Of a stretch of 64,000 nt of DNA, positions 1,921 to 59,405 are shown one piece after another. The notes under the pieces were generated by a model. It was given only the letters and a program-made list of their open reading frames with translations. It was not told where the DNA came from and made no database searches. How positions within the stretch are numbered: the first letter of the stretch is position 1; each line of letters begins with the position of its first letter. Made by a program: the position numbers and the translations under genes. The DNA comes from Gnetum montanum (Eukaryota; Plantae; Gnetophyta): the NCBI GenBank assembly GCA_015680685.1, contig MNCI01000737.1, forward strand, positions 1-64,000, written 5' to 3'.

Positions 1921-4900
1921 CTACATAATATATCATAAATCACTATTTGTTAGGTCATGAAACAAAATAACAAACTAACAAATGATTACGCTTGCAACTT
2001 AACCAAGTGCATAGAAATTGTGTTATGAATTAGTGAAATACACGAGTAATTCACAATTTTATAAGGTTATATGTGGGTTTCGTACCGCTCCAATGAATTC
2101 AGTTTTTCCCCATGACTACCAATGGTGAAATAAGTTTTGAACTAGTCTTATAAATATGTATATATGAAATTTCAATGGTTAAAAATCACATATGTGGGTT
2201 TGCACCAATGTTTGGAGCTTCCCTGATGACCTTGGGTCAAGGATGCCTAGCAAAAAGGGCTGGAGGCTGGAAGCAGGTGGCATTGAGGCCTGCTCCCAAC
2301 AAGAGGGTAGTATGCAACTCCGAATGCACAGACACTCTAAAAAAGGGGTTGCAACAATGAAACGCAGCCTTATTGGAAAATTTGTGTCTAGTGGGGTCAA
2401 GCCCAAGTTGGATCTAATCAAAAATGGGCAAAGACCACGTGGAAAGTGGGGGATGTTGAGGTCCGCTGCCTATCAGGGGACCTACTATTGTTTATTTTCT
2501 GATCCATTGAGAAACGTGACCAGCATCTGGCTGAAGGGCCATGGTTTTACGGGGCATAGGGTCTTACCCTTACGCTGTGGAGACCAAGGGTGCATAAGAA
2601 AAAAGACCTTTTTGCTAGAGCATTGATTTGGATTAGGGCATCCAAGATTCCCTAGGATATGTGGATGCTGAACTCTTTGGAAGCTTTGGCAGGTTTCCTC
2701 AATGACTTACTAACATTTGACAGGTTTCCTGGTTCAATGACAAGAATGGGTTTTGCCCACTTTTGTGTGTGGCACTTGCTCTTGTCGAAAGATCTAGTTA
2801 AGGAAGTCATGCTAGATTTTCCAGACAATGAGGAAACTATAAGAATTGAATACAAGAACCTTGAAGAACCCACTTCTCTGCCAAAAGCTGGGAAGGGTTG
2901 CTTGGTTTCTGGAAAGCTTGGGCACCAAGTAGCCAACTGCAAGGTTCAGTGCAAACCTAAAATGGTGGCAAAGCCCAAGGATAAACCAACAACGAGGTCA
3001 AGGTGGTTTTAGATCTAGAAGGGGTGTGCAGTCTCGGTACCCACAATGTCGATAGCTGAGGAGGGGACTATGGCAATGGATGGGACTAGCAATGGTGCAC
3101 AATGAACCTACTGGTGAGGTGTCACCAACACGATCCCCTTGCACACTAATGGGGAATGCAAAACAAGGGGGCTCATCAGGTGCAGAGCTCCCACCTTTGG
3201 GGAGTTGGGTAACAGCAATCTGCAGCTCCTCTAGACCATTGATGTCGAAAATTGTTGGGCTGCAATTTGGCTCTATTGAGTCCGGTGGGAGGCTACTCTA
3301 GCCTCACCAAGGGGCAAGATAGGTTGGCCCAGTGCGCTTGTGGCCAAAGGCAAGCAAACACAGAAAGAAATTGATTTGGGAATTCTAAAGATCCTACGGG
3401 AGGCCTTCAACAAAATGTTGTCAAGTCATCCATAAAGATTCTTTCCTGGAATTGTAGGGGATAGGGTACACCCTACAAAAGAAATACCCCCAAAGAGATT
3501 GTTCAACGGGAAGGATGTGACATTGTCTACTTACAAGAAACAAAGGTTTAGCCATCAAAGTTTGGTTTACTACAATGTGATGGATGGATATCATAGTTGG
3601 TGCCATGCAGGGGCAAAGCTGGGGGGCTTACCATTCTATCCTAGAAGCCACTGGTTTTGGTGGATGAGTCTACTTAGAGCCAAACGGTACACCTAGCCCA
3701 AGCCAACATCTGGCTTACAAATGTGTATGGTGCACAGAATTGGAAGGTTCACTTGTAGGAACTACAACGAGTTGCATCGATGGTGCCGAACAAGGAGTGA
3801 TGGATCTTGATAGTGGATTTTAACCAACATCTCTACCCATGGGAAAAGATTGGAAGAGATGGCACTATTTCTCTTGGTAGTCAGGAAGCACTGGCATTTC
3901 TCCGAGAGAATCATCTGGTCAACATGGCAGTGGAGGGTTGCAACTTCACATGGAGCAATAGGCGGAAAGGCAAAGATCGAGTGCAGTCCCGAATTGATCA
4001 AGTATGAGTTAGTATGAGGTTAGTGCTAAGTTTTGATGTCCATGTGACAAGCAAGGAGAGACAGGCTTCCAACCACCGTTCACTATTATAAAACCTGCAG
4101 GAAGTGTGCGCTATGGCCCCTAGGCCTTTTTGGTTCAAGCGTACATGACTCTCTAAGCCATGGTTGAAGCCACTAGAGTGGAACATTTGGCAAGATTATT
4201 CTCGGGAGAAGGAACCCAACAACTTCCCTAAGCATGATCTGTGAACACTTAAGATGCAAATCAAGGATAGGGCCATGGGGGATAAATACAGGTTTCGGGT
4301 TTACCAAGATCAATTGGTACAAAGATTGGCCGAAGTGCAGTTGAGACAGGAGTAGGGAGAGGATCTGATGATTAAGGACGTCTACTAGTGACACCGATTG
4401 TGAATCATGTAGCTTCAAGAGGGGGACCAAAACACACAATTTTTCTTTGCATCAACCAAAGGACATGGGTAGGAGAAGAACAAACGTAGGCTTGCAGATG
4501 AAGCGGAGGCTATGGCTGATGGGGCAAAGATTGTTGAACTAGTGCAACGGTATTGGGGGGAGATCTAACACAAGAGAGAGACTATTCTGATGTTAGTGCC
4601 AATTAAATGGGTTATTGGAACCTCTAAAAGCTAGGCATTGCTTCATCCCTTCACTTTGCAAGAATTAGAAACAGTGATGACTACTATGAAGCCTAATAAG
4701 GCACCGAGGCCTAACGGGTGGCCCATTGATTTCTTTAAGGAGTTCCTAGATCTTATCAAGGAGAATCTTTTGGATGCCTTTCATTCTATGCTGCGTTGGC
4801 AGGCAGTGCATCGGGAGATCAACTACTCAAGGATTGTTCTGATACCAAAGACTAAAACGTTGTCTTTGCCAGAGCATTTTAGGTTGGTGTCTATAATACC

Positions 4901-7900
4901 CTTCTTCGGATTTTTACTAAGATGCTAGTGTATAGGATGGCGTCACTGATGCCACCTTTGGTAAGGGAGAACTAGGCGGGGTTTGTGAAGGGCCAATTTC
5001 TGTAGGATCAAGTGATCTTGCTACATGAAATCCTCCACTCGTACCAGGCTTCAAGTTTCCCTGGGTGTGAAACTTGATATAAAGAAAGCTTATGATACTG
5101 TAAGTCAGGTAGCAATAGAGACAATCATGCTAAGGAAAGGCTTTAAACCTACTTTTGTGAACCTTTCTCTTCAAATCCAAACTTTGGGTAGCTATTCATT
5201 GGATGTTGGGGGCGGCTGTGGGGTTTCGAGGCACCTAGGAGGGGATTGTGCAAAGGTGACCCACTCTCGCCCCTATTTTTCATCTTACTAATGGACTCAC
5301 TACAAGGATATTAAGAACTAGAGGGCCTTTTGGGTGTGAAAGTGGTTGGTGTTCACTATGTTGTTGAGTATTACGCAAACAACACTTATGTTTTGTCGGG
5401 TGGTTGTGCCGCAAGCAATGGCTCTCCAAAAAGTGCTAGAGCAAATGGCATTGGAGCTGGGGTTAGAAGTTAATAAGACAATCTGCGTTGCACCTAGTCA
5501 ATGTTGAGGTGCAGGTGTAGAGAAGGATTTTCTAGGTTTTGGGTATCTTGCCCAAAACAATTAAGGACTCTTATCTTGGGATGCCAATTTTTGACTAGCA
5601 CAAGAGGCAAACCTAGACTACGCTAGTACAAAAATTAGAAAAGAAAACTGCACATTGGACGACCCAATTTCTGTCCCAAAAAGATAGAATTATTCTTGCC
5701 TCATCTATCCTAATGTCGATGGCAAGATTTACGACGTCTATGGCCCGTCCTCTGATGGGGGTGGCCTAACGAATCGACTAGATAATCTGATGGTTCATGT
5801 GGTCAAGAGGAATGGGGGGCGAGAAGATTCACCTTGTCAACTAGGCAAATACGACTAGACCCAAGCATGTGGGGGGGCTTGGGATATTGTCTTTCAATGA
5901 TGAAGTGGTGCTAGGAATGCAACAGCTAGCTAACTAGTTGATGGTACACGAGTAGCCCGCATAGTGGGTTAGTGTTGTGCAGCAACAGTATGGGCTCTAA
6001 GAGGCTAGATCCATGGAGCTTTGCAAACATATGGCTCATATGTGGGAATGCAAATTGATGGGCAAGAAGCCCAGAGAAATCATTCAACACAAATATCTGC
6101 CGCTACTCAGGTGGAGAGCAATTTGGAGGGGTAGACTTATAGAAAAAATTAATATTTTTGGATAATTAATAGCACATAAGGCATTGCCAATAAGGGGTGT
6201 TTTACAAGGGAGAGGAATGGTTGTTGACCCCCGATGCCCATTATACATGAGGGAAGAGGAAACAATTCATCATTTGATTTACCAATGTGATTACATGCTT
6301 GCCACATGGTGGGCGACAAGGCTAAATCCACTTGCTCACATGAACAAGGACGAAAAGAAAATAGCTATTTTCTAGGCGGCATGGCGAAACTGGAATAATC
6401 TTATCTTTAGGGCACAATAATTGCCCTTGTCGTCCATGACCACTGGTATGGGGCTACGACTATGGGAGGAAGCAACACACACCATGGGACTCAAGCAACA
6501 CTAGCAGCCAATAGTGTAGAAATGCTAGCAAAATCACAAGTTGTGGATGTTGGTTCGATGGGTTGGGTCGGCAAGGGTGCTACCTCAGATTGATGGGATG
6601 CCAAACCTTGCAAATAGCACCTTCTTTGGGAATTGGGAGGGGGAAGAGACACATTTTCGAGGTAGAAGAATTCTCTTAACTGAGGCTGCCATGGCAGAAG
6701 CCTTAGGCCTGCTGGTGGAAGGAGAAGACATTCCGCCAGTGCTACATAGTCATGCGCCTACAAGTGAATTTTTTAGTGGTTGTACACCAAAAATGGCTAG
6801 TGGTCATATTCCGCATACTGTGCTACCATCATTTTGGCAAGAGGTGGTGGTGCTAGTGGACAGATTCTTTGTCCAAAGAGGGACCGCCTTGAAGCTACTG
6901 AGCATGCATTTTGCTTCATGCAATGCCTCAAGTACAATGTGGGTGTTAATTTACCTTGTTTTAAGCTTGATTCGATGCAGCACCAAAGACCAAGAAGACA
7001 TTCTAATTGTATTTTGGCACTGTGGCGACATTGGGCTAAGATTTTGCCAACAGTGCACCAGCCCTTGAAGGGTCTATCAATGACAAAGATTTTGGTTCGG
7101 GTAGGGAGAAAATGCACCAAGCTCAAGCAAGGGTGGGAACATGGGCGAGGAAGCTACCTCATCTCATGGCAGACATGAGCAAGAGTGGTTGACGCATCCC
7201 AATGTACAGAAGGCATGTAGGGACATTGCTAAATAGGCTAGCGTAGCCGAACGGCAGGTGTGGGAGGCTCGTTGGGCTCGTTGGGAGGAACGCAAGGAGG
7301 GTTTGCATTTGACTACAAAATTGGCAAAAAGACAAAGAGTAGAGCTTCAAGATCTGATATACAAGACCCATCTTCAACCAAGGGCAGCTTGGCTACAAGT
7401 CATGCATGATGACTTGCATGAGGGCCCTCACGTGGAGACTAAACAAGAAGGGTGGCTAGATGCAAAGAGGCAGCAACAGGAGGCACAAGAGAGTTAGGAT
7501 TGGGAGGGATCCTTGCCTACAATTGGATTTTACAGACAATAGAAAATGACTATGCCTGAAGATCCACTGTGAGTTGGATCATTTGGTTGGGGGTTGTTTT
7601 GTAGGCGTGCTCTTAGATCAATTTTTCTAGGCAGTGTGGCTACTCATCTTGGGGTTTTTTGGGCCTCTGACCCCAATAGTTTGTGCTTTCCTCTAAGCGG
7701 GTTTTGGTACTATGTTTGCAGAGTTCATCTCTGGACTCTAGGGCTAGGTTTGGGTTACTGATGGCACATGGCACAGGTGAGGTGGTATGAGAGGTGTCGG
7801 CATGTTAATTATCACTGATTGATGTCTAGCGGGGTTATGGATCCCGTTTGTATATATATTTTTCTTCCTTTACAATAAAGCCTAAACATTTCTCAAAAAA

Positions 7901-10900
7901 GGGTTAAAAATCACATTAACACCTTACACAATTTATCTATTCTTACATTTAACCATGCAGGAATATGAAGTGTGTGTCAACTTAAGTTAGAGCATTTAGT
8001 CAATAAAGTTAATATTTTAGCTTGTGCTTTTTATAAAGGTAACAATGTATTAATGAAGTTCGGGTAAAGTATTAACAATATTCTTGTTACTTTTGGATAG
8101 AGAAAACTTTCTCATTAATACACTACACTGAAGGTAGAAGCCTTCAAGAACTTTCAGCAAGCAACAACTTTTGTGGATATCGAATAGCACATGGCTGTTC
8201 TCGACCCCATCCATAGGCAGGAAAGGGCCATTTGTGACTGTACGAGGCTGTCATACCGGCTCTGAGCGGTAGGGGTGGCAGGGTCTCTTGGGGGCCGTAG
8301 TTTTTGTCTCCCCCTCTCTGGAGGGGGGTTTTTGTTGGCCTTTTGTTCATCTATTATTGTCAGTTTATTTTGGCTACAGGATTTTCCGCTGGCAAGGTGG
8401 TGGACGTGGGAGGTTCTTGGCCCACCTAGGGGGTGTTGTGGGGGTTCTTTTTGGGGGAGATGGGAAGCTCCCTCCCCTGTTTTCTAGGGAAGATCATTTG
8501 TAATATTTTGTAAATTTTCCAATTTAATATATCCCGAATGTCTCCAAAAAAAAAGGTAACTGTCATTAATATCAAACCCCTGTATTTTCTAATCTGCACA
8601 TCACTTTCAAATTAAATGTTCAAACATTGATAGAGCAATTACAAAAAAAATTGAAACTGAAACTGAAATTTTTACTTACATCCACCGAGACCCATTGGAT
8701 CTATCAGACCAGTTCAGATTTCCTTTTACAGATTTCTTTTATAAGTCAATGCTACTGAATGGAATCAAACTTATGACCTGGGATTGCCAACCCAAGACTC
8801 TTACCACTAAGCTAACACCTCTTTGTAGCAAAGCAGCAACAAGATTGTTTACTGCTGTGGCAAGAACATTAATCAGCATTTGCTGAAATTGAGGTTCTCC
8901 TAAAACCTTAGTGAATTATCCTTAAAGTACACATATTCAAAACCTAGTATGGTATTAACCTAGCTTTACTGGTAAAGTACCGCTCCTAGCATCATCACTA
9001 AATCATTGTCTAATACATACTTGAGATAAAGTATTAAATGGAATCATATTTTGTGACAACTTGTTCAGACACTATTTTTAATCACTTTGTAACATTCTTT
9101 GCTTACTCAACTGTGTTACAAAACACCATATGACAAGTTACACCTTATCCTATAACACTCATACATATATAAACTACTAGCCATGTCAAGTTATTTTACA
9201 CATTGACACCTAAATTTTATAATGTAACCATATGGAATTTGATTATTTCAAAAAAAAAAAAAGGAACATGCTTACCTAAAAGGCAGATTTCCTCAAAATC
9301 CTTCAGATATCGTGAATTGATAGGTGAAGTGCTGCTTTCTCCAAGTAATTGTAGGCTTTCCTTCCAAAATTGATTTAATATAGGCTGAAATATTCCATTA
9401 TAATTACCACTCGTCCAGTTTGTATTACCAAATAAAGAATATAAAAAAACTAAAGTATAGTGTTCTTTCGTTGAACAGTCACCATCACCTTACATTTGAA
9501 TCTCCCATATTGCAACGATGAAACACATGCTGAAAGGCCTTCTTAAAAAGCTCAGACTCAAGATTTGCCAATTCCCCAGCCCACTGAGGCAAAATCTGTA
9601 TCAAGAATATTAATTCATTTTTCCATAAGTTTGCTCTATCAAAAAATAACAATATCTCATGATGGGGAAAAACCACCAAGTCATACCCCCATGCCCTGAA
9701 GTTCTGATATTAATTCAGGCAAGACATTTGGAACTGGAGCCCTAGAAGAGCACAAAAGTCGAAGCAAATAAACCTGAAAAATATCCCATTGAAAGGCTCC
9801 TAAATTCTTGACTTTATTAATTACCACAAAATGATGTAATTCAACCCAGATGTAAAGACGTACAAAGAGGTTACATTACCATAATCAAATCCTTTTTATC
9901 ATGATAAATACCTTTATCATCTGCTGAACAGAAAAACGAACCTTCAAATTAGATGTCATAATGAATACTTTCTGCAAGAGATTCAAGATTAGTGATGGAA
10001 AAAAGGAAATGCAGTAATCAAGAGTTCAGTCTGCATTTTATTCACAATTTCTTGTACTACAGTTTTCCATCAATCCCAAAGTTAAGAGGAATTAGAACTG
10101 TATAATCTAGAAATTGTATTGATCACTAAATGCACATGTTTTGGTGTTTATGTTTTATATATTATTTTATTCATATCCTATGTTCACTTTTTTATCAAAT
10201 GTTAAAGTTCATGAGTTGTGTTATAGATTAAAGCTTGCGTTAAAACAGGACAGAACTAAAAAAGGTGTTTAATGTCATGTGTCCCCCTCTTCAAAAGCTA
10301 TATAAGAAGCCCAAAGCTCTATATTCAAACTTGATGTGAAACTGGTGAATGCATTGTAATTATGCTCTCATTTCAATCAATAGAGAAGGAGAACGGAAAG
10401 TCCTTTGTGCTGAAGTTCTTTAAGCTTTAAGCTCTTGTTTGTTTTCATTGTTATTTCACAATGAATTCGTAACATAGATCATGTTTTAGATTAGATTGTT
10501 CACAGCATTTCACAATCAATTTCACATGTCACAGCTATTTCACAATCATTTCTCATTTCACAATCTATTTTACATGTTCATATGTTATCTCACAATATTT
10601 CTTAGTTCTATGTTCAGAGTTGAATAGATCATTGAGTTCTATTCTGTTTTTTTTTTTTTTTCTTCTTCTTCTTTTTCTTTTTCTTTTTTTTTTTTTTTCT
10701 CTCTTTTGAGAAGTGTTTGGATTGGATTAATCGTAAAAAGAAATTTACATGAGTTTTGTACAGCCTCAAAAATGAGGGGAGGCCTCTCCCCTCCACCCCC
10801 AAAAAGAAACCCCCGTCATAGAAGGCAGGGCCAACTAAAACCCCACCTACCAACTACCAACACCAAAAAATCAAAATTGGCAGGTCACCCCCATGGACCC

Positions 10901-16900: not shown

Positions 16901-19900
16901 TCTTATACATAAGATTAATATAAGAAAACACATACATTGATTTAACAAACTGAATGATCATAAAAATGTCAACCTAGTGTCTGTTTTTACTTGTTAAAAT
17001 AAAACATCAACCTCGTATTTTGCAGATATGAGAACTAGATTCAATAGAGATGAGGCTGGAAAACCAACTATTATACTGTTGCAAATTGTAGTGCCTTGTA
17101 ACTCCAAACTATGATATCATATTATTAGTACCTTGGTTATACAGACGGACAGGCAGATAACATAATAGTCAAGCTTTGTGATTAGTTTCAAAATAGTGTT
17201 TATACAAGTATTGGCATATTTCACCATTTCTTACCAATTATCCTCACATTATTTGGTCTTGACTGAATTTACATATGCATCTACTTCAAAATTTTTAAAA
17301 TTTATATTTGATATTACTAAAAACAATTTCCATCATGACTACGTTTGCTTGACACATTCTCTTTGGACAAAAGAATTCATGTAGAAATTATTTGCACTTA
17401 TACATTTTATTACACATTTGAAACTGAAACTGAAAATTCTTTATAAAACTAAAGAGTGTCATTGGATCTATTGAATGGAATTCAATTTTGGCAATGTTTG
17501 TTAAAGAAATTGTGAAATTATTCTACGTAATAATCTCTCTGATTTGTTGTTTTATTTGCTATTTTAGAAATATAGGGGATTTGGTTCTATCTTTGACTGA
17601 AACTTATGAGGCATTATTAGAAGGTATCTTTGTTTCCTTATTTTGTTGAAGATTAGTTATCAACTTTCCCTATACTTTCCTTATTCTTTTTATCAACTTC
17701 CTTGTACTTTCCCTATTATTTAGGAAAGTTGTTTCTTGTATTCATTATATGTAGCTTATATGGCAATAATGAAAAAATGCGGTGAGAATTTTTATTCTTC
17801 ATAGAATTCCACATTAAAATTCCACATGGTATCAAAGGCATCTCTAAAGATTTTCAATGGCCGCTGATAAGGAAGTCTCATCTCCGGAAATCATCCCAAG
17901 CTGTATCAACCAACTAGGTGTCGTCAATCACTCGTCTTTTGTCATCACCGGCCACAAGCATAATAGCCAGAATTATCTCTCTTGGTCACAATCTGTTTTG
18001 ATCTTTATCACTGGTAAAGGTAAAGATGAATACCTTACCGATGAAGCGGTCCAACTAGAGAAGGAAGATGCATCCTTTCGAGCATGGAAGATGGAGAATA
18101 ATTTGGTTACATCATGGCTTCTCAATTCCATGATAAATGAGATAGGAGAAAATTTTCTCCTATATGAAATAGCAACAGAAATTTGGGAAGCCGCTAAGGA
18201 GGCATACTCACACGTTGAGAACAAATCTAAGTTGTTAGAGATTGAGAGTATTTTTTATGATCAACAACAAGGAAATCTCAACATCACACAATACTTCAAC
18301 ATTCTCAATTGTCATTGGCAACAATTAGACATGCTCCAAGAATACAAATGGAAGTGTCCCGACGATGCCACATATTACAAAAAGATTGTTGAAGAAGCAA
18401 GCCTATACAAGTTCTTAATCGGCCTAAATAAGAACTTGGATGATGTTCATGGACATATTTTATCAAAGAGCCCTCTACCAAGTCTTCATGAAGCATTTGC
18501 CAATGTCCAATGTGAAGAGAGCTGCAAGAAAATCATGATGGAAAAGCAAGGCACATCCAACAATTTTGAAGCTTCTGCAATGGCAGCTCATGGAGGACAG
18601 CCAACATTCAACAATGAAAAGCAAAAGAAGGAGAGGCCTAAATGTGACCATTGTCACAAACTTGGTCACACAAAGGATCGGTGTTGGGAATTACATGGCA
18701 AACCCGATGATGTCAAATCTGCACTCGAAAAGATAGCAAAGGACATTCAGCCACAACTAAGAGAAAACCAAAAATCACCGACACCACTCTCTTCAGCAAA
18801 GAACAACTCAAATTACTCCAGAAACTGTTCAAGCAGCAGCAGACCAGTTCATCCTCCTCTCTCATAGCCACCAAATCTATTGCTCACAAAGGTAAAATCA
18901 TGCACGCTTTCAATGTTAAAGGAAAAAATTCTGCTGTTTGGATAGTCAACTCTGGGGCATCTAATCATATGACTAAAGACTCATGGTTATTTATTGAAAT
19001 CAATCCATGTAAGGAGAAGTGGCATGTTCGAATTGCTAATGGAACACATTCTCAAGTGGCTGGAATTGGAATAGTGATATTAACCAAGGATTTGACACTT
19101 CGCTCAGTTTTGTTTGTTCCAAAGTTGGATTGCAATTTGTTATCAATCAATAAACTTACACAAGATTATAATTGTGTCAGTAAATTTTTCAAAAACTTGT
19201 GTGATTTTCAGGATATGGATATAGGGAGGACAATTGGTATGGCTAAGGAAAGTTTGAGGTTATACCTACTTACAAGTAGTAACTCTCCACATGAACAAGC
19301 TCTAAAAGTTGGTAGTCTATGTTTTCAAGATTCATATTCTAGTGTTTCTATTTCTCATTCCAATAATGAAGCCATGCTATGGCACTTTTGTTTAGATCAT
19401 CCCAATTTTGGGTATCTTGAAAGATTGTTTCCATTATTATTCAAGAATAAAAATCCAAATTTGTTCCAATGTGAAGTGTGTCAATTTTCAAAGCATACAC
19501 GAAGTCCATTTCCAAATCAATCATATAAACCTGCTTGTCCTTTTTCAATAATTCATAGTGATGTGTGGGGTCCCTCTCAAGTAAAACATCTTTCAAGATC
19601 ACGATGGTTTGTGTCATTCATTGAAGATCACATTCGCATGACATGGGTATATCTCTTAAAAGAAAAATCCAAAGTTGATCAAGTCTTCAAAAATTTCAAC
19701 ATCATGATTTACACTCAATTTCAAACCAAAATTCAAATTCTCAAAAGAGACAATTGCAAAGAATATTTCAAGTCTATATTGGGAGAACATCTATTGAGTT
19801 AAGGAATCATTCATCAAAGTTCCTATGTTGACACCCCACAACAAAATGGCATTGCAGAACAAAAAAATAGACATCTTCTTGAAGTTGCCCAATCCCTAAT

Positions 19901-22900
19901 GTTTTCAACCAATGTTCCCAAACAATTATGGGGAGGATGCCATCCTCACTGCATCATTCTCCCCATTTATCCCAATACTACCATTCAGGGGGAGAGTGAA
20001 TATAATAAGGAGTGCCAATCTTGGGATGTTGAGAATGATTCAAAATTCCCTCATAACATCGGAACTCCTATAGTTTTCACTTATGAACATGTCAACCAAG
20101 CCTTCCAATCTACTCTACCCAAGCCCACTTCTCAAGAGCCTAACCCTGAGTCTAACCCTTCTTCAAACTCACAAACAAATGATGAGCTAAGTGTCCATTC
20201 TAGGAGAGGAAGTGCACAACATCAAGGAGAACCTCCAACTTCTCTTGAACCCATCCAAAAGTCCAACTCAGATTCATTAAATGAAGGTAACACAATTTCT
20301 AAGATTGTTACTAGTGATACTCCTGATGATTTGGGTTGGCCAATTGCTCTAAGGAAGGGTGTTAGATCATGCACTCAGCATCCAATTCGTAAGTATGTCT
20401 CTTACTCTAATTTTTCAGCAAATTTCCATGCCTTTGTCATGAGTTTGGATGCTATACAAGTTCCTACTAATGTCAAAGAAGTGCTTTAAAATCCCTTATG
20501 GAAGGCAGCAATTCTTGAGGAGATTCGGCCTCTTGAAAAGAATCAGACATGGGAGATAACTGATTTGCCTCCAGGAAAGAATCCAATTGGGTGCAAATGG
20601 ATATTTATAGTGAAGTATGAGGAAGATGGCAATGTTGATAGATACAATGCTCGCCTCATTGCAAAAGGTTTCACTTAGTTTTATGGCATTAACTATCAAG
20701 AAACATTTGCTCCTGTAGCCAAGCTTAACATTGTCAAGGTTCTCTTATCTCTTGCTGCCAACCTCGACTAGCCACTATTTCAGTTAAATGTGAAGAATGC
20801 TTTCCTAAATGGAGACTTGAAAGAGGAAGTATACATGAAAATTCCTCCAGGGTTCGAGACTCATGCTACAAGGAAGCAAGTCTGCAAGTTGAAAAGGTCT
20901 TTGTATGGTCTTAAACAATCTCTAAGAGCCTAGTTTGACAAATTTACAAAGGTGGTGAAGTTGCATGGGTACTCCCAAAGCCAAGCCAATCATACCTTGT
21001 TCATAAAAAGGTCCATAGTTGGTAAGGTATCTATTCTAATAGTTTATGTTGATGATATAATTGTTACTAGTGATTTCACAAAGGAAATGACTAATCTAAA
21101 GAAGGCTCTTACCAAAGAATTTGAGATCAAAGACCTAGAAAATCTCAGATATCTTCTAGGTATGGAGGTGGCTAGATTAAGGAGTGGAATTTCTGTATCT
21201 CAAAGGAAACATGTTCTAGATTTGCTTGAAGAATGTGGAATGTTGGGGTGTAAGCCAACAAACACTCCAATGGAGACCACTAAACTAGGGATTGTAGAAA
21301 TGGGGGCTCCTGTTGACAAAGGTCAGTATCAACGGTTAGTTGGTAGATTGATCTATCTCACATACTCATCCCGACATTGGATTCTCTATCAATGTTGTGA
21401 GCCAATTCATGAATGACCCAAGAGAAGAACACTTGGAAGCGGTCTACAAAATCCTAAGGTATTTAAAGTTGATGCCAAAAAAAGGACTACTCTTCAAGAA
21501 GTGCTCAAGCTGAGGGGTAGAGATATATAGTGATACAAATTGGGCAGGTTCTGTGACTGATCGAAAATCTACATCAAGTTATTGCACCTATTTTTGGGGT
21601 AATCTTGTTACTTGGAGAAGCAAAAAGCAATCTGTGGTATCAAGGAGTAGTGCAGAAGCTGAATTTCATGCTATGGCCCATGGTATTTGCAAAGGATTTT
21701 GGATCAGAAGACTACTCGAAGAACTTAAAGTTAAGATTGAAGAATCAATGAAGCTTCTCTGTGATAACCAATCAACAATCAGTATAGCCAAGAATCCAAT
21801 TCATCATGATCAGACTAAACATGTGGAGATTGATTGGCACTTCATCAAAGAAAAGATTGAANTTTTGGATCAGAAGACTACTCGAAGAACTTAAAGTTAA
21901 GATTGAAGAATCAATAAAGCTTCTCTGTGATAACCAATCAACAATCAGTATAGCCAAGAATCCAATTCATCATGATCAGAATAAACATGTGGAGATTGAT
22001 TGGCACTTCATCAAAGAAAAGATTGAAGGCAATGTCATCCTATTAGTCTACATGCAAACAAGTTCTCTAATTGCTGATATTCTAACAAAAGCCTTACCTA
22101 GAAAATGTTTCAAAGAATTAAGTTCCAAGCTAGGGATGAACAATATTTTCAGACCAGCTTGAGGGGGAGTGTGGAATTATTCTAGGCATTAATCTCTCTG
22201 ATTTGTTATTTTATTTGTTATTTTAGAAATATAGGGAATTCAGTTCTATCTTTGACTAAAACTTATGAGGCATTATTAGAAGGTATCTTTGTTTTCTTAT
22301 TTTCTTGAAGATTAGTTATCAACTTTCCCTATTCTTTTTATCAACTTTCCTTGTACTTTCCCTATGATTTAGGAAAGTTGTTTCTTGTACTCATTTTATA
22401 TAGCCTATACAACAGTAATGAAAAAATGCAGCAAGAATTCTTATTCTTCATAGAATTCCACATTAAAATTCCGTGGAATGCTTCATTTTCTTTGTATCTT
22501 GGCCCAAATTGTTGGGACAGAACATGTGACCTGCAGGAATTTCAAGTCAACTATAATACTATATCAATATGTTGGATTCTAGATGAGCAATGTTCTGATT
22601 AGGTTATCGTGATTACCTTTTTCCAATGATTTACATAATTATATTTTTATTCTAGAGTGTAACTAATCAAATTAGTTAGCTTTTTATTCACACCTTCATC
22701 ACAAAATGAAGAAAACTCCCAAAAAACAAAAACAAAAATAAAATAAAATAAAGAAAGAAAATAAAAGAAAAAGTTTAAACACTTCATTTTTAGGTGATAA
22801 GATATTGCACTTTCAAACTTCCCTGAAGCTTGAATAAATTTTGATATTTTTTCTTCGTCTTTAGCCTCTAATAAAGAAAGTTTTTTTTAATAAAATTTAA

Positions 22901-49471: not shown

Positions 49472-49908
49472 GGTACACAGGGGGAGTTTTTGTGATTTTT
49501 CTCTGCGACTTACGATTGAGTGACCCTTGCTTTCTTACTCATATATTGCTCACTGTTACTCTGATTTTTATTTCGTTTACACCTGCTTGAACCCAGAGTG
49601 TTCAGCTTAGTCATGGGGGAGGGACACTTGCCGAAAAGTGCCTAAATTTTTTGAAATTTATCATCGCCCAACAGACATCAATTAGGGTAATTAACTATAA
49701 CACTTAGAATAATTGTGCCTAAAAATCATTTAATCCTTAGGTATACCAGGAAATTAAAAATGGAAACCACCTAAGTCACAGGACTCATTATTACAAACTT
49801 TCGGGCACTATCACACGTGATAATATAAGATCATTAATAAAGAAAAGTAGTAAGGTATAACTTGACTTCAAAAACAACCTTACTAATGTTTGGCCCATGC
49901 GATTGTAG

Positions 49909-52445
49909 ATGGCCCCAAAACATGGACAACAGGAGGGTCATGCTCAAGGTGGAAAGAAACGATCTCGGAGAGGTGGAAGATAAGGTCCTGCCGAACAACA
50001 TGCAGAATAAGAGGAGCACTCATTCAACATCCATCAAGAAGAACCTCCTACCAGACGGTCCAGGCAAGCAGAAGGAGGAGCTGCTGCAATGCCTAAACCG
50101 GGACAACAATTCACGTTGTCCCAAGATTGTGTTCAAGCTATCCATGAGAAGTCCACATTCGTTGTGGTGATTGTGGAGTTAAACTTCAAATATTTTGCAG
50201 AGTTCGCTCCTGAGCCTATTAAGGATCACCTCAAGGGGTCTCCCTTATGGCAGAGACAAAGCATTTGGTGAATTGATGATGGAAGAGAGGGTTTATTTCA
50301 AAATTGGGACATATCACCTCTTCCCCACAAAGGGCTTGAAAAGAATATCCATGTATGTGGCTAGAGGATGTGCAGTGTTGATGGGAAAGGTTAACGCTAA
50401 CCTACCCCATCTATATTTGACAGAGATCCTGAGGCGGTTCAAAGAACAGAAGACAGGGAAGATGGCGTTGCCTTTCCCTTGTCTTATCAGAAAGCTTTTC
50501 CAACGTGCTGGTATTCAGGGATACACCAATGATGTCCTCCAAAAAGCCTAAACTGCTTCATATGCTGAATTGCTAAAGGCGCCAGCTCCAAGGAAAAGCA
50601 TTGGTGAAGAGCTAGGACCAAGAAGAAGAACAGATGGCTGGACCCAATCAACCTTTAGCCACGGGTCCCAACGAACAACAAGAAGCAGGGCCTAGCATAG
50701 GCCAAGATTAACCGCCAACGCTACAAGACTATAGACCGTCAATGAGCCATCTTAGGGCCATCACTGAGATGGTCAGTTGGGGAATTCATGATGACGTAAA
50801 CCTCTTCCATGTCATTGATGATGCCAACCAGCCTACTATTTTATTAGATCGCACAAGGGGTGAATTATCAATTCAAACAAGAGGAGGGGAAAGCAGATGG
50901 TCATAACAAATCTTAGGAAACGCGACAACTTTTCAAGTGCAGTTAGAGACTAGTGAAGGGGCCACTGTGGTGGTCATGCAACACCAGGATGTGGTGGGAA
51001 CTGTTGAGGTGGTCGCTGACCATATCAAAGAATCCTTTAACGTACTTGTTGTGCCACCGACAGATCTTTCAGGAGCACGGGATGCTCAAACTCTTGCCAG
51101 AACCTCAATGACTCCTGCGGAACATGAGGATGCACTAGATCAATTTCTACAAACAGGACAAGTTCTGACGTCCTTGTTTGACATCCCCCAGGATGTAACA
51201 GCAATTCAATCAGACCTCATTTCCACAAAGGGGAAGCTAGTCATATCTGAAGTAAAGGCCGAGCATGTTGAAGCTGAAGTGCAGAAACTACAAGAGCAGC
51301 TCATGGCCTTACAAGCAACACAACGGGACCCTCTACAATTTGTTCCCGTAGACTAGCTAGAAAATTTTAGAATGGAGCAACTAACCAAGTTGATCGCAGA
51401 GAATAAAAGGATGGCAGCTGAAAAGGAGAAGGCTGTTTGGGATGCCTCCGCAGCACAAGCACAAACTCATGCGCATCTTAAGGCACTCAAGGCCTTAGAA
51501 GAAGAAAACAAGCAGCTGGTTGCTGACAACCTTCAGTTGACCACTATAGGAAAGCAAAAGAACGTTCTTGATGAAAATTTTCATCATTTATGAGAACAAT
51601 TCATTTGGGTCAATCGAGATGTAAGCCGTTTAGCTAGAGAAAATCGAACCCTCTTAATGGAGGAGGTACGTGCTATTCGTCAAAAGTCAGCAACTGAGAT
51701 AAGCACGTGGCAGAACGAGGCTAAACGACATGAGAAGCTGAAGGAGCACTTTCGCGATCAAGTGGGAATGTATAAATAGATCCTTGAAAAGGAAACCCAT
51801 ATGGCCAAGGCCCAAATCAACACTATCATTGCTCAACACACTGATTGGGGGGCCATATTGGACACCTACGCTTTCGCCTAGCAAGCAGAAGTTAAGAACC
51901 GGGACTTGCAGATTTAGGACTTGATAGAGTACATGGAGTTGGCAAAACTAAGATATGCCAACCTTGCCATGTTAACAGCAGGGCGCTTGAGAACAGAGCT
52001 TGAGCAGCAGGTAGCTTCCACCCACATCAAATACAAAGTAGAATTTTCAGAATGCAAGAAGCTGTTGGAAAAATTGGATGTTGCAAATTCTGAAGTTGAG
52101 GTGGTAAAAGCCAGCTACTAGGGACAGAAAGATGTTGCAACCGACTTGGCTCGATAGCTAATAGATCTTCACGAATACAAGGATAAAGCCAGAGCCTACG
52201 AGGAGGAACGACGGGTGTTTGCAGCTTGGTATGTCAAGGCCAACCAAATGTTCTCGCAACTACCTTGTCCGTGGGAAGTGCCGACTCCGTCAAACATTGG
52301 AACACTAGCATGGATGGCACAAGACCCTCAGACTGAAGAGGAGAAGCTCTAGGCCATACTTCAACGCCATCAAGCTTCAAAGCCTGGAGCACATGACAAA
52401 GGGAAAGCGCCAATGGAGGAGCCACCGCCACCAGGAACTACATGA
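49909..52445 (+). pseudogene. Athila-type accessory ORF (copy B; ~225-nt deletion near 50250)
   Basis: MAPKHGQQ...; VNANLPHLYLTEI...LPFPCLIRKLFQRAG; coiled coil; ends DKGKAPMEEPPPPGTT*. Confidence 0.8.
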
Positions 52446-55279: not shown

Positions 55280-58200
55280 ATGAATGTAGAAGAATGATCA
55301 TTTGGAACATATACCCTGCAATTACAAAGCAAAAGAAGACTTGTAGATATCTTCTTTCTTTGTCCTGGACCCAGAAACATTAAGGAAACGGTGGACGAAA
55401 CTGAGGAGACTCTGACCAGTCTTTTCTTAGTGCCTTCGCTATTAAGCCAAGCACATGTTCCTTCACGCGGAGTTGCACTTTGTTGTATGCGTTCGCACGC
55501 GATGCCCATAAACTTTGAAAAAGGTTTGAGCGATATATTCGTGTTTGGTTTCGATTCTAAATTACTGACGCTTGGAGAGATGTTCTGTGCAAGATTGCAG
55601 ATATAAGCGGATACTTGAGGAACTTGATATTAAATTGTTCAATGTTTCCACCAACCTGGTTGGAAGAGAAAAGCAGTTACTCAGCATCAAGGATGATATA
55701 ATGAAACTCCGTCAAAATGGGTTTAATGTGGCATCAGTGGAAATAAGTGGTATTGGAAGCATTCAAAAAATCACCTTTGCAAAAGAACTTTATAATCAAA
55801 TTTATTCTCAGTATGATAGGAGTTGTTTTATTGAAGATGTAAGTGGACTTATAGAGAGCCATGGTATAAATGAAGTCCATAAACACATTATCATTAAGCT
55901 TTTCAAATATGATCCAAGTCACTTAAGAATGGAAGGAACCAAACTTTTAAAAGAGAGAGTGCACATTGAAGAAGTTTTAGTTGTGCTAGATAATATTGAT
56001 GGTAAAATTCCATCAAGCATGGTGTTTATTGAAGGTAATGTGTCTCTAAATTCCAGAAGTGTCATTACTGCAACAAGTAGGGAAAAGGGAGTTTTAAAGC
56101 ATGATCCTAGAATTGATAGAGAGTGTAAACATTTGATTCAACTACAAATGTGACAATTAGAATTTTATACTTCAAAAAATTTATTTTGTGAGTAGGCATT
56201 TGGAGGAATTGACAATGTCAGGAATGAATTTAATGAGTTGATAGAAAAGATTGTTTAAAAATGTGATGGGACACCATTAGCATTGACTTTGCTTGGCAGA
56301 CAAGTCTATGGGACATAGATTAAATTCTGGAAAAACTTATGGAATACTATGAAAGATTTTTTGCCTTATGATTTGAAGAAAATACAACTTAGCTATGATA
56401 ATCTTGACACAAAGCTAGAAAAATGCTTGTTCTTAGATGTTGCCATTTTTTTCCATCACAAGAAGGAAGAGATGCTCATTCAACTTTGGGGAGGTGATGA
56501 TGAAGATGGTGAATTAGAAGTTTTTTGTACTCTTGAAGTATTGTAGAGGAAGCTTTTAATTAAGGTGGAGGGTAGTATTTTAGATGTGCATGATTTGCCT
56601 ACGGACTTGGGAAGAACAATAGTTAAATATGAAGATCCTTTGTGCCCTAGCGGTCGTAGTTGGGTGTGGCAGCCTTCCGATGTTAGATATGTGTTATCTG
56701 AGGAAATGGTACGACACTATGCTTTTTATTCATATTTTTAAGATGTTTTTTCATTAAAATAATTAGGGTTTTGTTGTTCCCTCCCTTTGCAATGTAATCC
56801 TTTTTTATAAGAGGTAGTCACCCCAAAGCCTTGGTTGGGAATTTCAAGGACGGAAAAAGTAAAAGTACTTAGCTTAGTGTCAAATGGTTCAATTGTATTA
56901 GATGAAGATGAATATCCATGGTCTGCTGAAGCATTCAACAAACTGCCATCTCTCAAATTTCTCATCCTTAATGGTCATTGTATTGAAATACATGTATTTT
57001 TTTATTTCCTTATTTTTCAAACATGGTAACATTTTGATTTGATTTGTCAAAGACTTCTACATTGTTTTTTGATTTGTCAAAGACTTCTACATTGTTTTTT
57101 GATTTGTCAAAGACTTCCATATTGTTTTTCCAAAGGCAGTAATTTTTCCAGAAAGAGACTGTTATGGCTGAAATGACTAATTTTCTGTAGATCATAGCAC
57201 ACTGCCTAAAAAGTGTGAGAGTCTTACAATTGTCCGGTGAAAGGTTGACCGGTTATGGTAGTGTCCTCAGCTGGTGAGATTCAACGCTTTACCTTTTGTT
57301 AGAAAAACAAAACGTTTTAAAGTATTATTCCATCTTTGACACAAGTCAAATGCCCTTGAACAGGAGACTCCAGCAAAAATGAGGGAACTTAGTTTATCAA
57401 GTTGCAAGAACCTGCAAAGGCTTCCGGAATTCAAGGGTAGGTTTCTGCACTTATCTTGCTTAATACTTGATGGATGCGCATATTTGGACACTCTTCCAGG
57501 CAGCTTTGGCGAACTCCAAGGAATGAAACATCTTCAACTAATAAAATGCCAGGCATTGGTACGGTTGCCGGAGACCTTTGGAAAACTTGAAGGATTGAAA
57601 CATCTCCAACTTGTAAATTGCACTGCACTGGAATCGTTGCCAGAGACCTTTGGAGATCTAAGACGTTTATGTAACTTGAAGATAGAGTTATTAGGTAGAC
57701 TAAAATCATTGTCAGAGTCCTTTGGCAAATTGTCGCAATTAAGAGCATTGAAGATCAATGGCTGTGGAGCTCTGCAATGCCTTCTAGATTCTTTTGAAAA
57801 TCTGTGAAAATTAGGTTCGCTGCATCTTGAGGATTGCCGAGTCTTGAAACACCTGCCGGACTTGAGCATTGAGAAATGCACTGCTCTACCTAGACTACAT
57901 GAATCATTTGGACTTCTTTTACAGTTAAAAGAGTTGACCATCCTGAATTGCAATGCTCTACAACGACGATGTTGCGTTAATAGTCAATCATTTTTTCAGC
58001 ATAGGTGGTTTTCAGCATATGAAGAACCTGATTCTCCATCATTGTCACAGTCTCCAATAGCTGCCTGACAGCATAGACAGTCTTTCAAGTCTGATACATC
58101 TGGAGCTTAATTCATGCTTGAATCTAAAAGTGCTTCCAGCATGTATAGAAAATCTTTCACAGTCAAAAGCGTTGCGTCTCATCAGCTGCTGGAATTTACA

Positions 58201-59405
58201 GGAGTTGCCGGACACCATTGGCAACTTAAAAAATTTAGAATGGCTGTGTATTAGTGATTGCATTGTTTTGAAGGGATTCGCATCTTGGTTAGGGAGTCTT
58301 TCTAGCCTGCAATTTCTAACAGTTCCAGATTGCTGGATGGTGGAAGTCCTCCACATGCACGCATTGGTCAGTCTTGTAGGTTTTGAAGTAATTGTTTGCC
58401 TCAACATGAGGAGAATTGCTGGGCTTTCAAGCCTTCGCAAGCTTAAATACCTTAAAATTGAAAGGTGTTGGAACCTCGTAGACATCCAGCTACCTGAGAT
58501 AAACGGGTGTGCCTCCACTTTCAGCTCTTTGCGTAGTCTCCGTATCAGTGGTTTTTACCACTTACGTTCTCTTCATTACAGCATTGTGCAAAAGCTGCCT
58601 TATGAGTTAGACGATCTGGGGCTCACGCTTAACCACGACATTCTCAGCGCATCATTGGACAACGAGAACAAGGTATGATGTATATATATTTTGTTGATAT
58701 ATGTATGCAAATATAAAATTCTGGCGTGTGCATTCTTGATTTTTGTAGGAATGAATTAGATTAATTAATCTCTTTTTATCTATCTGACAAGTTGTGGCCA
58801 ATTATGTTGAGCATTTGCAGACGATGCCCGCATCTCTTTTTAAGTGGTCATTAAATGCAGAAAAGCACGAGGTTTGCATTGCTATCGAGTGGTAAATGCG
58901 AAGACGAGTCCGGCATTGTTTCCCGTAGTGGAACAAAGGGTTAAATATCTGGTCAGTACCAAATATGATTCCTCCTCTTTCACCTTCATCATTCTCTTTT
59001 CATAAATTTTCTGAGGTTAATGCCTGTTCCTTTTCATTTCCATTCAATTCCGGCAACAGAGTCCAGGTGTTTTGTTTTGTTTCAGTCGTTTGCGCTGTCG
59101 ACCTCCCAATGCACATTCCTCAGCCACAAACTTCTTTCTCTTTCTTGTTTAAAACGATCGATCGTTCCTATATCTATGGCGCTGTTGAGAGTAACTCTTC
59201 TGATTTTGGGGAAGAAATCCTCATGGGTTTTGGCAGCGGTCAACTCCCTAGGGATCGTGACTATAAGATGCACATTTGAGTTCTGAACGATACAGGTTTC
59301 GATAGAATGTCCTATCCAAGCTACGAAGCGCTTGTAAAGGAAGGAAGGACGATTCTTCTGCATGGTAGAGAAGGAGAGGAGCAAAATGAATTATTGGCAG
59401 CATAG
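55280..59405 (+). pseudogene. TNL-type NB-ARC-LRR immune receptor pseudogene with a post-LRR domain
   Basis: Degenerate P-loop GIGSIQKITFA; TIR-type RNBS-A SCFIEDVS; kinase-2 VLVVLDNID; GTPLAL; RNBS-D CLFLDVAIFF; VHDL; many LxxLPExFGxL LRRs. Introns at about 56709-56812, 56994-57190 and 58672-58820. Multiple in-frame stops (55295, 56151, 56544, 57805, 59277) and frameshifts. Confidence 0.9.
57038..57130. repeat. 30-bp tandem repeat x3 in an NLR intron
   Basis: TTGATTTGTCAAAGACTTC(T/C)A(C/T)ATTGTTTT. Confidence 0.9.

Follow-up and report, generated by a model that had tools for sequence, protein, structure and literature searches.

L1 element and other elements of the window

The window, i.e., the whole stretch of 64,000 nucleotides that was analysed (Gnetum montanum, contig MNCI01000737.1), contains a heavily decayed plant L1 LINE at 2177-7916 on the forward strand, for which both a poly(A) end and a flanking target-site duplication of 15 bp are present. 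The duplication, GGTTAAAAATCACAT, occurs in exact copies at 2177..2191 and 7902..7916 and nowhere else within the window, in agreement with an earlier note on this DNA. The L1 layout of a DUF4283-type ORF1 followed by endonuclease (APE), reverse transcriptase (RT), and zf-RVT zinc finger in ORF2 is present in order. In detail, the decayed ORF1 (2203..3400, approximate limits) carries DUF4283 at ~2413-2769 (PF14111, E 6.1e-16), and ORF2 comprises a decayed APE at 3441..4082 (PF14529, E 0.0017; PF03372, E 0.0035; neither reaches its curated cut-off), a frameshifted RT at 4700..5500 (approximate limits), and zf-RVT at ~6109-6309 (PF13966, E 1.2e-13). For the RT region, a Pfam RT match was absent in single-frame scans, and the assignment comes from the second L1 of the window, to which tblastn gave E 3e-29 and 8e-22. 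ORF1-like coding sequence begins almost directly behind the 5' copy of the duplication (2177-2210), and thus the element is probably slightly 5'-truncated.

Downstream of the zinc finger, the part with which L1 ORF2 usually continues, a W..RN..IF motif and the helix after it, is situated at 6364..6500, where this copy is interrupted by stops at 6373 and 6418. The motif recurs in other zf-RVT loci, and a block at ~6452-6500 is conserved in other copies of the element. An in-frame linker follows (6501..6570), with TAG at 6502, 6517, and 6526 here and sense codons in other copies. The extension proper consists of conserved block 1 (6571..6730; FFGNW ... RGRRI ... AEALGL), delimited by the depth of diverged copies and silent variation in loose ends of contigs, and conserved block 2 (6805..6977; LP..WQEV ... 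KLL.MHF / MQCL ... VNLP ... DSM), delimited by a depth peak at 6815-6895, loose ends, and indel rows at 6914-6917; one base near 6915 is missing from block 2 in this copy. A probable third-frame continuation with a KTKKTF.LYFG motif (6983..7100) was read by eye from the translation of this copy. It is followed by a charged, likely helical tail (7105..7497) of uncertain true end, recognised by composition and by colinear copies at 7173-7511, and by a 3' UTR (7498..7900) with a predicted hairpin and a short poly(A), whose limit agrees with the end of other copies at 7885-7892 and with a depth drop past ~7950. All of these features are located on the forward strand.

A second L1 of the same clade lies on the reverse strand (~13850-10750) and is 33-48% identical in pieces of ORF2. 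Its RT end runs directly into an E/Q/R-rich tail, and since neither zf-RVT nor the two-block domain is visible, it is probably internally deleted. A 5'-truncated LINE piece (8131-8555, forward strand) has its 3' 390 bases in common with the second L1 (11126-11010, reverse strand), with a score of 163 versus 40 +/- 6. A G-rich/C-rich hairpin is predicted in all three LINE tails, ~50-90 bases before the poly(A), at ~7828-7848, ~8452-8473, and ~10775-10794. Furthermore, two LTR elements which are ~75-78% alike (34880-32700, reverse strand; 49850-51800, forward strand) were found, both of them broken and with no pol seen in their long open frames. The accessory ORF of both combines a PF20167-like domain, a faint match to a DUF1758 peptidase (E 0.07-0.2), and a long helical, coiled-coil-like tail in this order. 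A decayed copia-type LTR element occupies 17500-22470 (terminal repeats 88% alike, by eye and self-blast), and a fragmented disease-resistance-type gene lies at 55569-58675 on the forward strand (an NB-like piece by eye, LRR matches).

Reading frame of the extension

The end of zf-RVT had been described in the earlier note as running on in frame into a stretch of 35 residues, and indeed zf-RVT, the ORF2-end motif, and this stretch share one frame. This frame contains five stops in 6373-6528 and none in 6529-6915, where the two other frames contain 5 and 8. The five stops are all TAG or TAA (4 TAG, 1 TAA), as had been remarked, but this is of little value as evidence, since a distance of a single transition holds for any such stop; 8 of the 9 stops in ORF2 upstream (5704-6372) are of the same kind. 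Stronger evidence for read-through is the C found at 6502, 6517, and 6526 in other copies.

According to the loose-end cells of other copies, the coding frame is that of zf-RVT up to ~6915. Behind 6914-6917, other copies carry one extra base (three indel rows in run X1, one of them also in X9), and past ~6915 the frame switches to that of an 11-residue motif on the VNLP side, which the earlier note had placed after a frameshift and which does sit in another frame than zf-RVT. A reading of 6861-6915 in the VNLP frame is ruled out by the loose ends and indel rows of other copies. From this copy alone we infer two later changes of frame, at ~6980 and ~7100, as well as the end at 7497. With respect to length, the extension is long, but ~45 of the ~363 codons after the NLIF motif (by eye) represent the usual post-zinc-finger helix of L1 ORF2, and thus the extra part amounts to ~320 codons instead of the ~350 proposed before.

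The tail frame shows one stop in 130 codons (an internal TAG at 7234) versus 6 and 8 in the other frames. Its composition is charged and, close to the E/R/Q-rich character described earlier, rich in E, Q, R, K, A, and L up to a TAG at 7495-7497. The coiled coil claimed along with it did not emerge from the heptad moment, which was significant in none of six tail windows of this decayed copy (best p 0.064). A transmembrane segment, which would mark a plant env-like ORF, was not found in the extension, the highest 19-residue hydropathy mean being 1.19. Compared to the tail of the second L1, 180 of 1000 protein shuffles and 4 of 200 DNA shuffles scored as well, which is at most suggestive of homology between both tails.

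Occurrence in other copies

The stretch or a part of it is contained in 10 of 22 listed sequencing runs (4 studies). Public contigs were aligned at 80% likeness, those of four runs on 5600-8000 and those of four (one repeated) on 6290-6680. On 5600-8000, 106, 43, 52, and 20 contigs matched in X1, X8, X9, and X10, of which 74, 31, 40, and 18, respectively, were less than 90% alike and thus stem from other copies; contig depth does not equal copy number, the runs are from close relatives with shared inherited insertions, and the classification of X10 as RNA is a guess.

Copies that have diverged to 80-90% likeness occur in runs under four organism labels and are colinear with this copy over zf-RVT, the extension, and the 3' end, which they have in common. 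Record 1 of X1 spans 6210-6916 with 143 differences and one gap; its length falls short of this copy by one base, at a position that is not listed. In record 22 of X9 (6020-7375), zf-RVT is joined to the tail in order with a spacing shorter by 18 bases, hence in frame. The same order is found in record 3 of X1 (5607-7511, in pieces), whose distance from zf-RVT to the tail is 775 versus 821 bases and therefore out of frame. The depth of diverged copies is the highest of the stretch in block 1 (375 versus ~13 for single contigs, X1). Since the colinear copies share their 3' end, the extension lies inside the common ends of the family: it is real and belongs to an L1 family. The earlier note had considered that it might be unique to this copy; the many diverged colinear copies show that it is not. 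In 6290-6680, none of 12.9 million reads of X12 and one of 12.6 million of X15 matched, which is no test of transcription.

Coding constraint

Constraint was read by hand from loose-end cells, each the consensus of 1-5 contigs; as such cells also include inherited copies common to several runs, they are not independent and no formal dN/dS was derived. Three cells before 6835 keep Q-V-P-K-[ST]-T-L-P-Q-[LI], and of their nine variable sites six are at third, three at first (one of them leading to a stop), and none at second codon positions. Behind 6875, four residues (A, K, L, L) are common with this copy, all four through other synonymous codons, and the AEALG motif behind 6677 follows a similar silent-site pattern. 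These cells support a coding constraint on the extension, with other copies differing mostly at silent positions.

In the sister subfamily, to which the second L1 and the 5'-truncated piece at 8131-8555 belong, pS is 0.94 and pN 0.20 over the final 39 codons in one frame, while the other frames lack such a bias, so that its ORF appears to end in a constrained motif. No real Pfam match was obtained for this motif. The sister L1 subfamily likewise has a charged tail, which is coding and under selection as judged from these codons. The neutrality considered in the earlier note thus fits neither the silent-site bias of the extension, as read by hand, nor the pS and pN values of the sister subfamily.

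Identity of the two-block domain

Two LTR-element ORFs of the window matched PF20167 with E 2.8e-7 and 1.3e-4, both of which miss the curated cut-off, a piece of 62 residues accounting for the match with E 1.3e-4. By eye, the extension has three motifs in the same order and spacing as these ORFs. The resemblance of RG.x.I...AEALGL and VNLP to the Athila ORFs of the window, to which the earlier note had drawn attention, is visible, but it does not rise above chance in profile tests. An hhalign comparison set the motifs in register over 98 columns with a probability of 0.24%, and 14 of 60 shuffles were as good. A two-sequence HMM of the PF20167 ORFs scored the extension at -1.9 bits, with 449 of 1189 reported shuffles as good. 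In pairwise comparisons, 10 of 1000 shuffles (uncorrected) came up to the BLOSUM45 local score of the extension against the PF20167-positive ORF piece, and 127 of 1000 to that against LTR copy A. These profile tests compare one decayed, frameshifted copy to two-sequence profiles and are of low power.

The database searches gave no homologue. Single-frame pieces of the extension, the second half being split by frameshifts in this decayed copy, gave no Pfam match to PF20167 or PF10536. Word-index protein searches returned no match among 481, 26, and 1765 candidates; the last query included zf-RVT, which was missed as well, and thus these blanks say little. Among 1.84 billion representatives, phmmer found only two matches to the extension, both to repeat proteins. 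By eye, one of these is HECT-like with a repeated insert and the other is a bacterial protein of surface repeats, and both were rejected as summed chance matches. Scans for related loci yielded no confirmed case in 561 metagenome and 39 viral stretches, and the corresponding scan with the LTR ORF gave one match of 16 residues, which was not used. The best two matches of the extension in the PDB had E 0.6 and 1.2, and a single-sequence structure model reached a pLDDT of 34 and an unusable fold. A lack of any match had been named in the earlier note as an argument against a shared module. Matches are indeed missing from Pfam, the PDB, and the protein collections, but the blanks are weak because a query containing zf-RVT was missed too, Pfam fails on the first half of the PF20167-bearing ORF of the window itself, and the diagnostic second half of the domain is cut by frameshifts in this copy.

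Based on the order of the motifs and on the general pattern of the family, we slightly favour an assignment of the two blocks to a domain of ~140 residues of the PF20167/Athila-accessory type. A module common to LINEs and LTR elements would be plausible, by a narrow preference. The best-surviving alternative keeps the same conserved ORF2 fusion and regards the domain as a new, lineage-restricted one unrelated to PF20167 or to plant mobile domains, with a motif likeness due to chance. It would explain why the formal PF20167 tests are all null or marginal and why a homologue was found neither in the protein, PDB, metagenome, and viral searches nor in the zf-RVT loci listed. We nevertheless consider it rather doubtful in view of the three motifs in the order and spacing of the PF20167-positive ORF, with an hhalign register that is nonsignificant, and in view of the low power of the tests, the first half of a true PF20167-bearing ORF likewise escaping Pfam. 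The L...LGL..EG motif of the extension presumably recalls the plant mobile domain PF10536.

ORF2 fusion or separate ORF

The earlier note had left open whether the PF20167/Athila-like extension is fused to ORF2 or forms an ORF3. At three of the five stops in 6373-6528, sense codons occur in other copies: C replaces the stop base at 6502 in three contigs, and at 6517 and 6526 in a single contig, which itself carries TAG at 6496. A fully open copy was not found among the aligned copies, with the stops at 6373 and 6418 lying outside the coverage by diverged copies, and these points, like the spacing of records 1 and 3 of X1, speak against a fusion; each copy apparently has private stops, and none was seen in common. 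Indel rows were absent among the contigs aligned in 6290-6680. The only ATG at the domain start, at 6598, is GTG in 9 contigs of X1 and 6 of X2, and conservation begins upstream of it, near 6571.

A separate ORF3, which would follow an ORF2 with the normal end and be expressed via re-initiation or from an RNA of its own like the additional ORFs of LTR elements, would agree with the stop density (5 in 52 codons of 6373-6528 versus 9 in 223 upstream), with the linker being the least conserved part, with the ATG codons present in the linker of some copies, and with the stops at 6373 and 6418, for which diverged copies give no coverage. These two stops, however, interrupt the normal ORF2 end motif itself, the frame is the same as that of zf-RVT, other copies have sense codons at the three stops around the normal end of ORF2, and the ATG at 6598 is not conserved. 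We therefore judge an ORF3 unlikely. Due to the silent variation, the sense codons at three of five stops, and the mostly missing start ATG, fusion is the favoured one of the two options, and the extension very probably forms the C-terminal end of a single ORF2 protein.

RNase H and the usual ORF2 end

In the literature, as far as the available excerpts go, the end of plant L1 ORF2 is described as a zinc finger or an RNase H, the latter being a known addition (PMC5348765, PMC5203782, in part). For comparison, a zinc-finger pattern was run over metagenome stretches and gave at least 116 zf-RVT loci. Among the 116 listed, the W..RN..IF motif occurs in 27, and 17 match the ORF2 end of the element at E < 1e-3, of which 8 have at least 900 bases downstream. 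Three of these 8 related loci continue into an RNase H, and five end 122-137 codons past the first cysteine. The extension is matched by none of the 116 listed loci, the best E being 0.48. In L041 and L043, long open frames downstream were considered as relatives of the extension and rejected, as they lie past the ORF2 stops of those loci and look unrelated.

No RNase H was found where it is normally placed, as the earlier note had claimed. A profile built from five L1 loci among those listed gave -1.6 bits for the extension, compared to 16.6-94.2 for held-out members and a shuffle maximum of 4.6, and pieces of the extension lack any RVT_3 or RNase H match in Pfam. The extension is thus without an RNase H match, and the element is not an L1 of the RNase H-bearing Ta11 type. 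That the extension could be a degenerate or permuted RNase H is suggested by its position, by the RNase H-bearing loci L073 and L052 among the best zf-RVT matches listed, and by AEAL and VEGED, which we take to be reminiscent of RNase H motifs. We regard this as very improbable given the failed profile and Pfam matches, the distance of merely three residues between AEAL and VEGED, and an E in other copies in place of the candidate first aspartate.

A one-off 3' transduction or a functionless nested fragment, for which the heavy decay of this copy might speak, is the least probable of all and is refuted by the many diverged copies that run colinearly through the extension to a common 3' end, together with the silent-site bias.

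Possible role of the extension

Taken as a whole, the preferred reading is a multi-copy plant L1 family whose ORF2 continues into a conserved extension of ~320 codons that is not an RNase H and is likely part of one protein, with a PF20167/Athila-type domain, a charged helical tail, and a putative accessory role; we give this full combination an even chance. The extension might act as a non-enzymatic accessory or interaction module in cis with the ORF2 protein and the RNA of the element. The tail could serve oligomerisation, and the two-block domain may bind host or chromatin factors and so promote entry into the nucleus, targeting, or evasion of silencing. Host RNase H would take over the removal of the RNA, just as for L1s without an RNase H domain.

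Considering its origin, the chances are balanced that a plant L1 lineage took up an LTR accessory module of the PF20167/Athila type and attached it to its reverse transcriptase where RNase H would otherwise sit. If true, the module would serve both retrotransposon orders, its role would be independent of virus-like particles and of an envelope, and a function towards host factors, chromatin, or silencing would become more likely. A LINE enzyme has neither capsid nor envelope. Should the homology hold, a LINE-fused module would thus speak against an envelope role of the Athila/PF20167 accessory proteins. In the parts available of the respective papers, the additional ORFs of plant LTR retrotransposons are called of unknown function and often env-like (PMC7264820), the Athila domain was modelled as coiled-coil pentamers and accessory proteins had more predicted host contacts (PMC13547354), and counter-silencing was proposed for transposon-borne plant mobile domains (PMC8616336).

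Comparison with known systems

A plant L1 with such an ORF2 end was not reported in the literature found, and the subclade may already figure in Heitkam et al. 2014 or Repbase. As an L1 architecture it is solid, and the identity of the domain is only a little better than evenly supported. A conserved alternative ORF2 end of 320 codons represents a new architecture that was wholly missed by domain annotation.

According to the excerpts seen of PMC5348765 and PMC5203782, Ta11-type L1s with an archaea-like RNase H at the ORF2 C-terminus have the same DUF4283 ORF1 and an ORF2 of APE, RT, and zinc finger, and both in them and in the present family the frame of the zinc finger continues into an added domain. 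The part added in the present family, in contrast, has about twice the length, closes with a charged tail, and is not an RNase H. PF20167 (Transposase_32, putative plant transposon protein) is related to Athila ORF1 PF03078, and its ORFs are described, in the portions available, as separate ORFs of LTR elements (PMC11728184, PMC7264820), whereas the putative homologue is here likely fused to a LINE reverse transcriptase. The extension and the two PF20167-positive ORFs of the window are alike in motif order and in the layout of a domain followed by a helical tail. Plant mobile domain proteins (PF10536, MAIN/MAIL1) also represent a transposon-borne plant domain with a proposed counter-silencing role, but in the sections seen of PMC8616336 they are described from Ty3/gypsy elements and host genes, and the decayed pieces of the extension lack a PF10536 match.

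The gain of C-terminal ORF2 domains by LINEs is already known, as far as the excerpts show, from RNase H and from insect viral helicases (PMC6338049). In insect R1/Jockey LINEs, a viral SF1 helicase is fused at the ORF2 end (PMC6338049, PMC4686597, both in part), so that the uptake of a non-essential C-terminal ORF2 domain by a LINE from a different type of mobile element has a precedent. These LINEs differ from the present family in host group, LINE clade, and domain, the helicase being an enzyme with known motifs.
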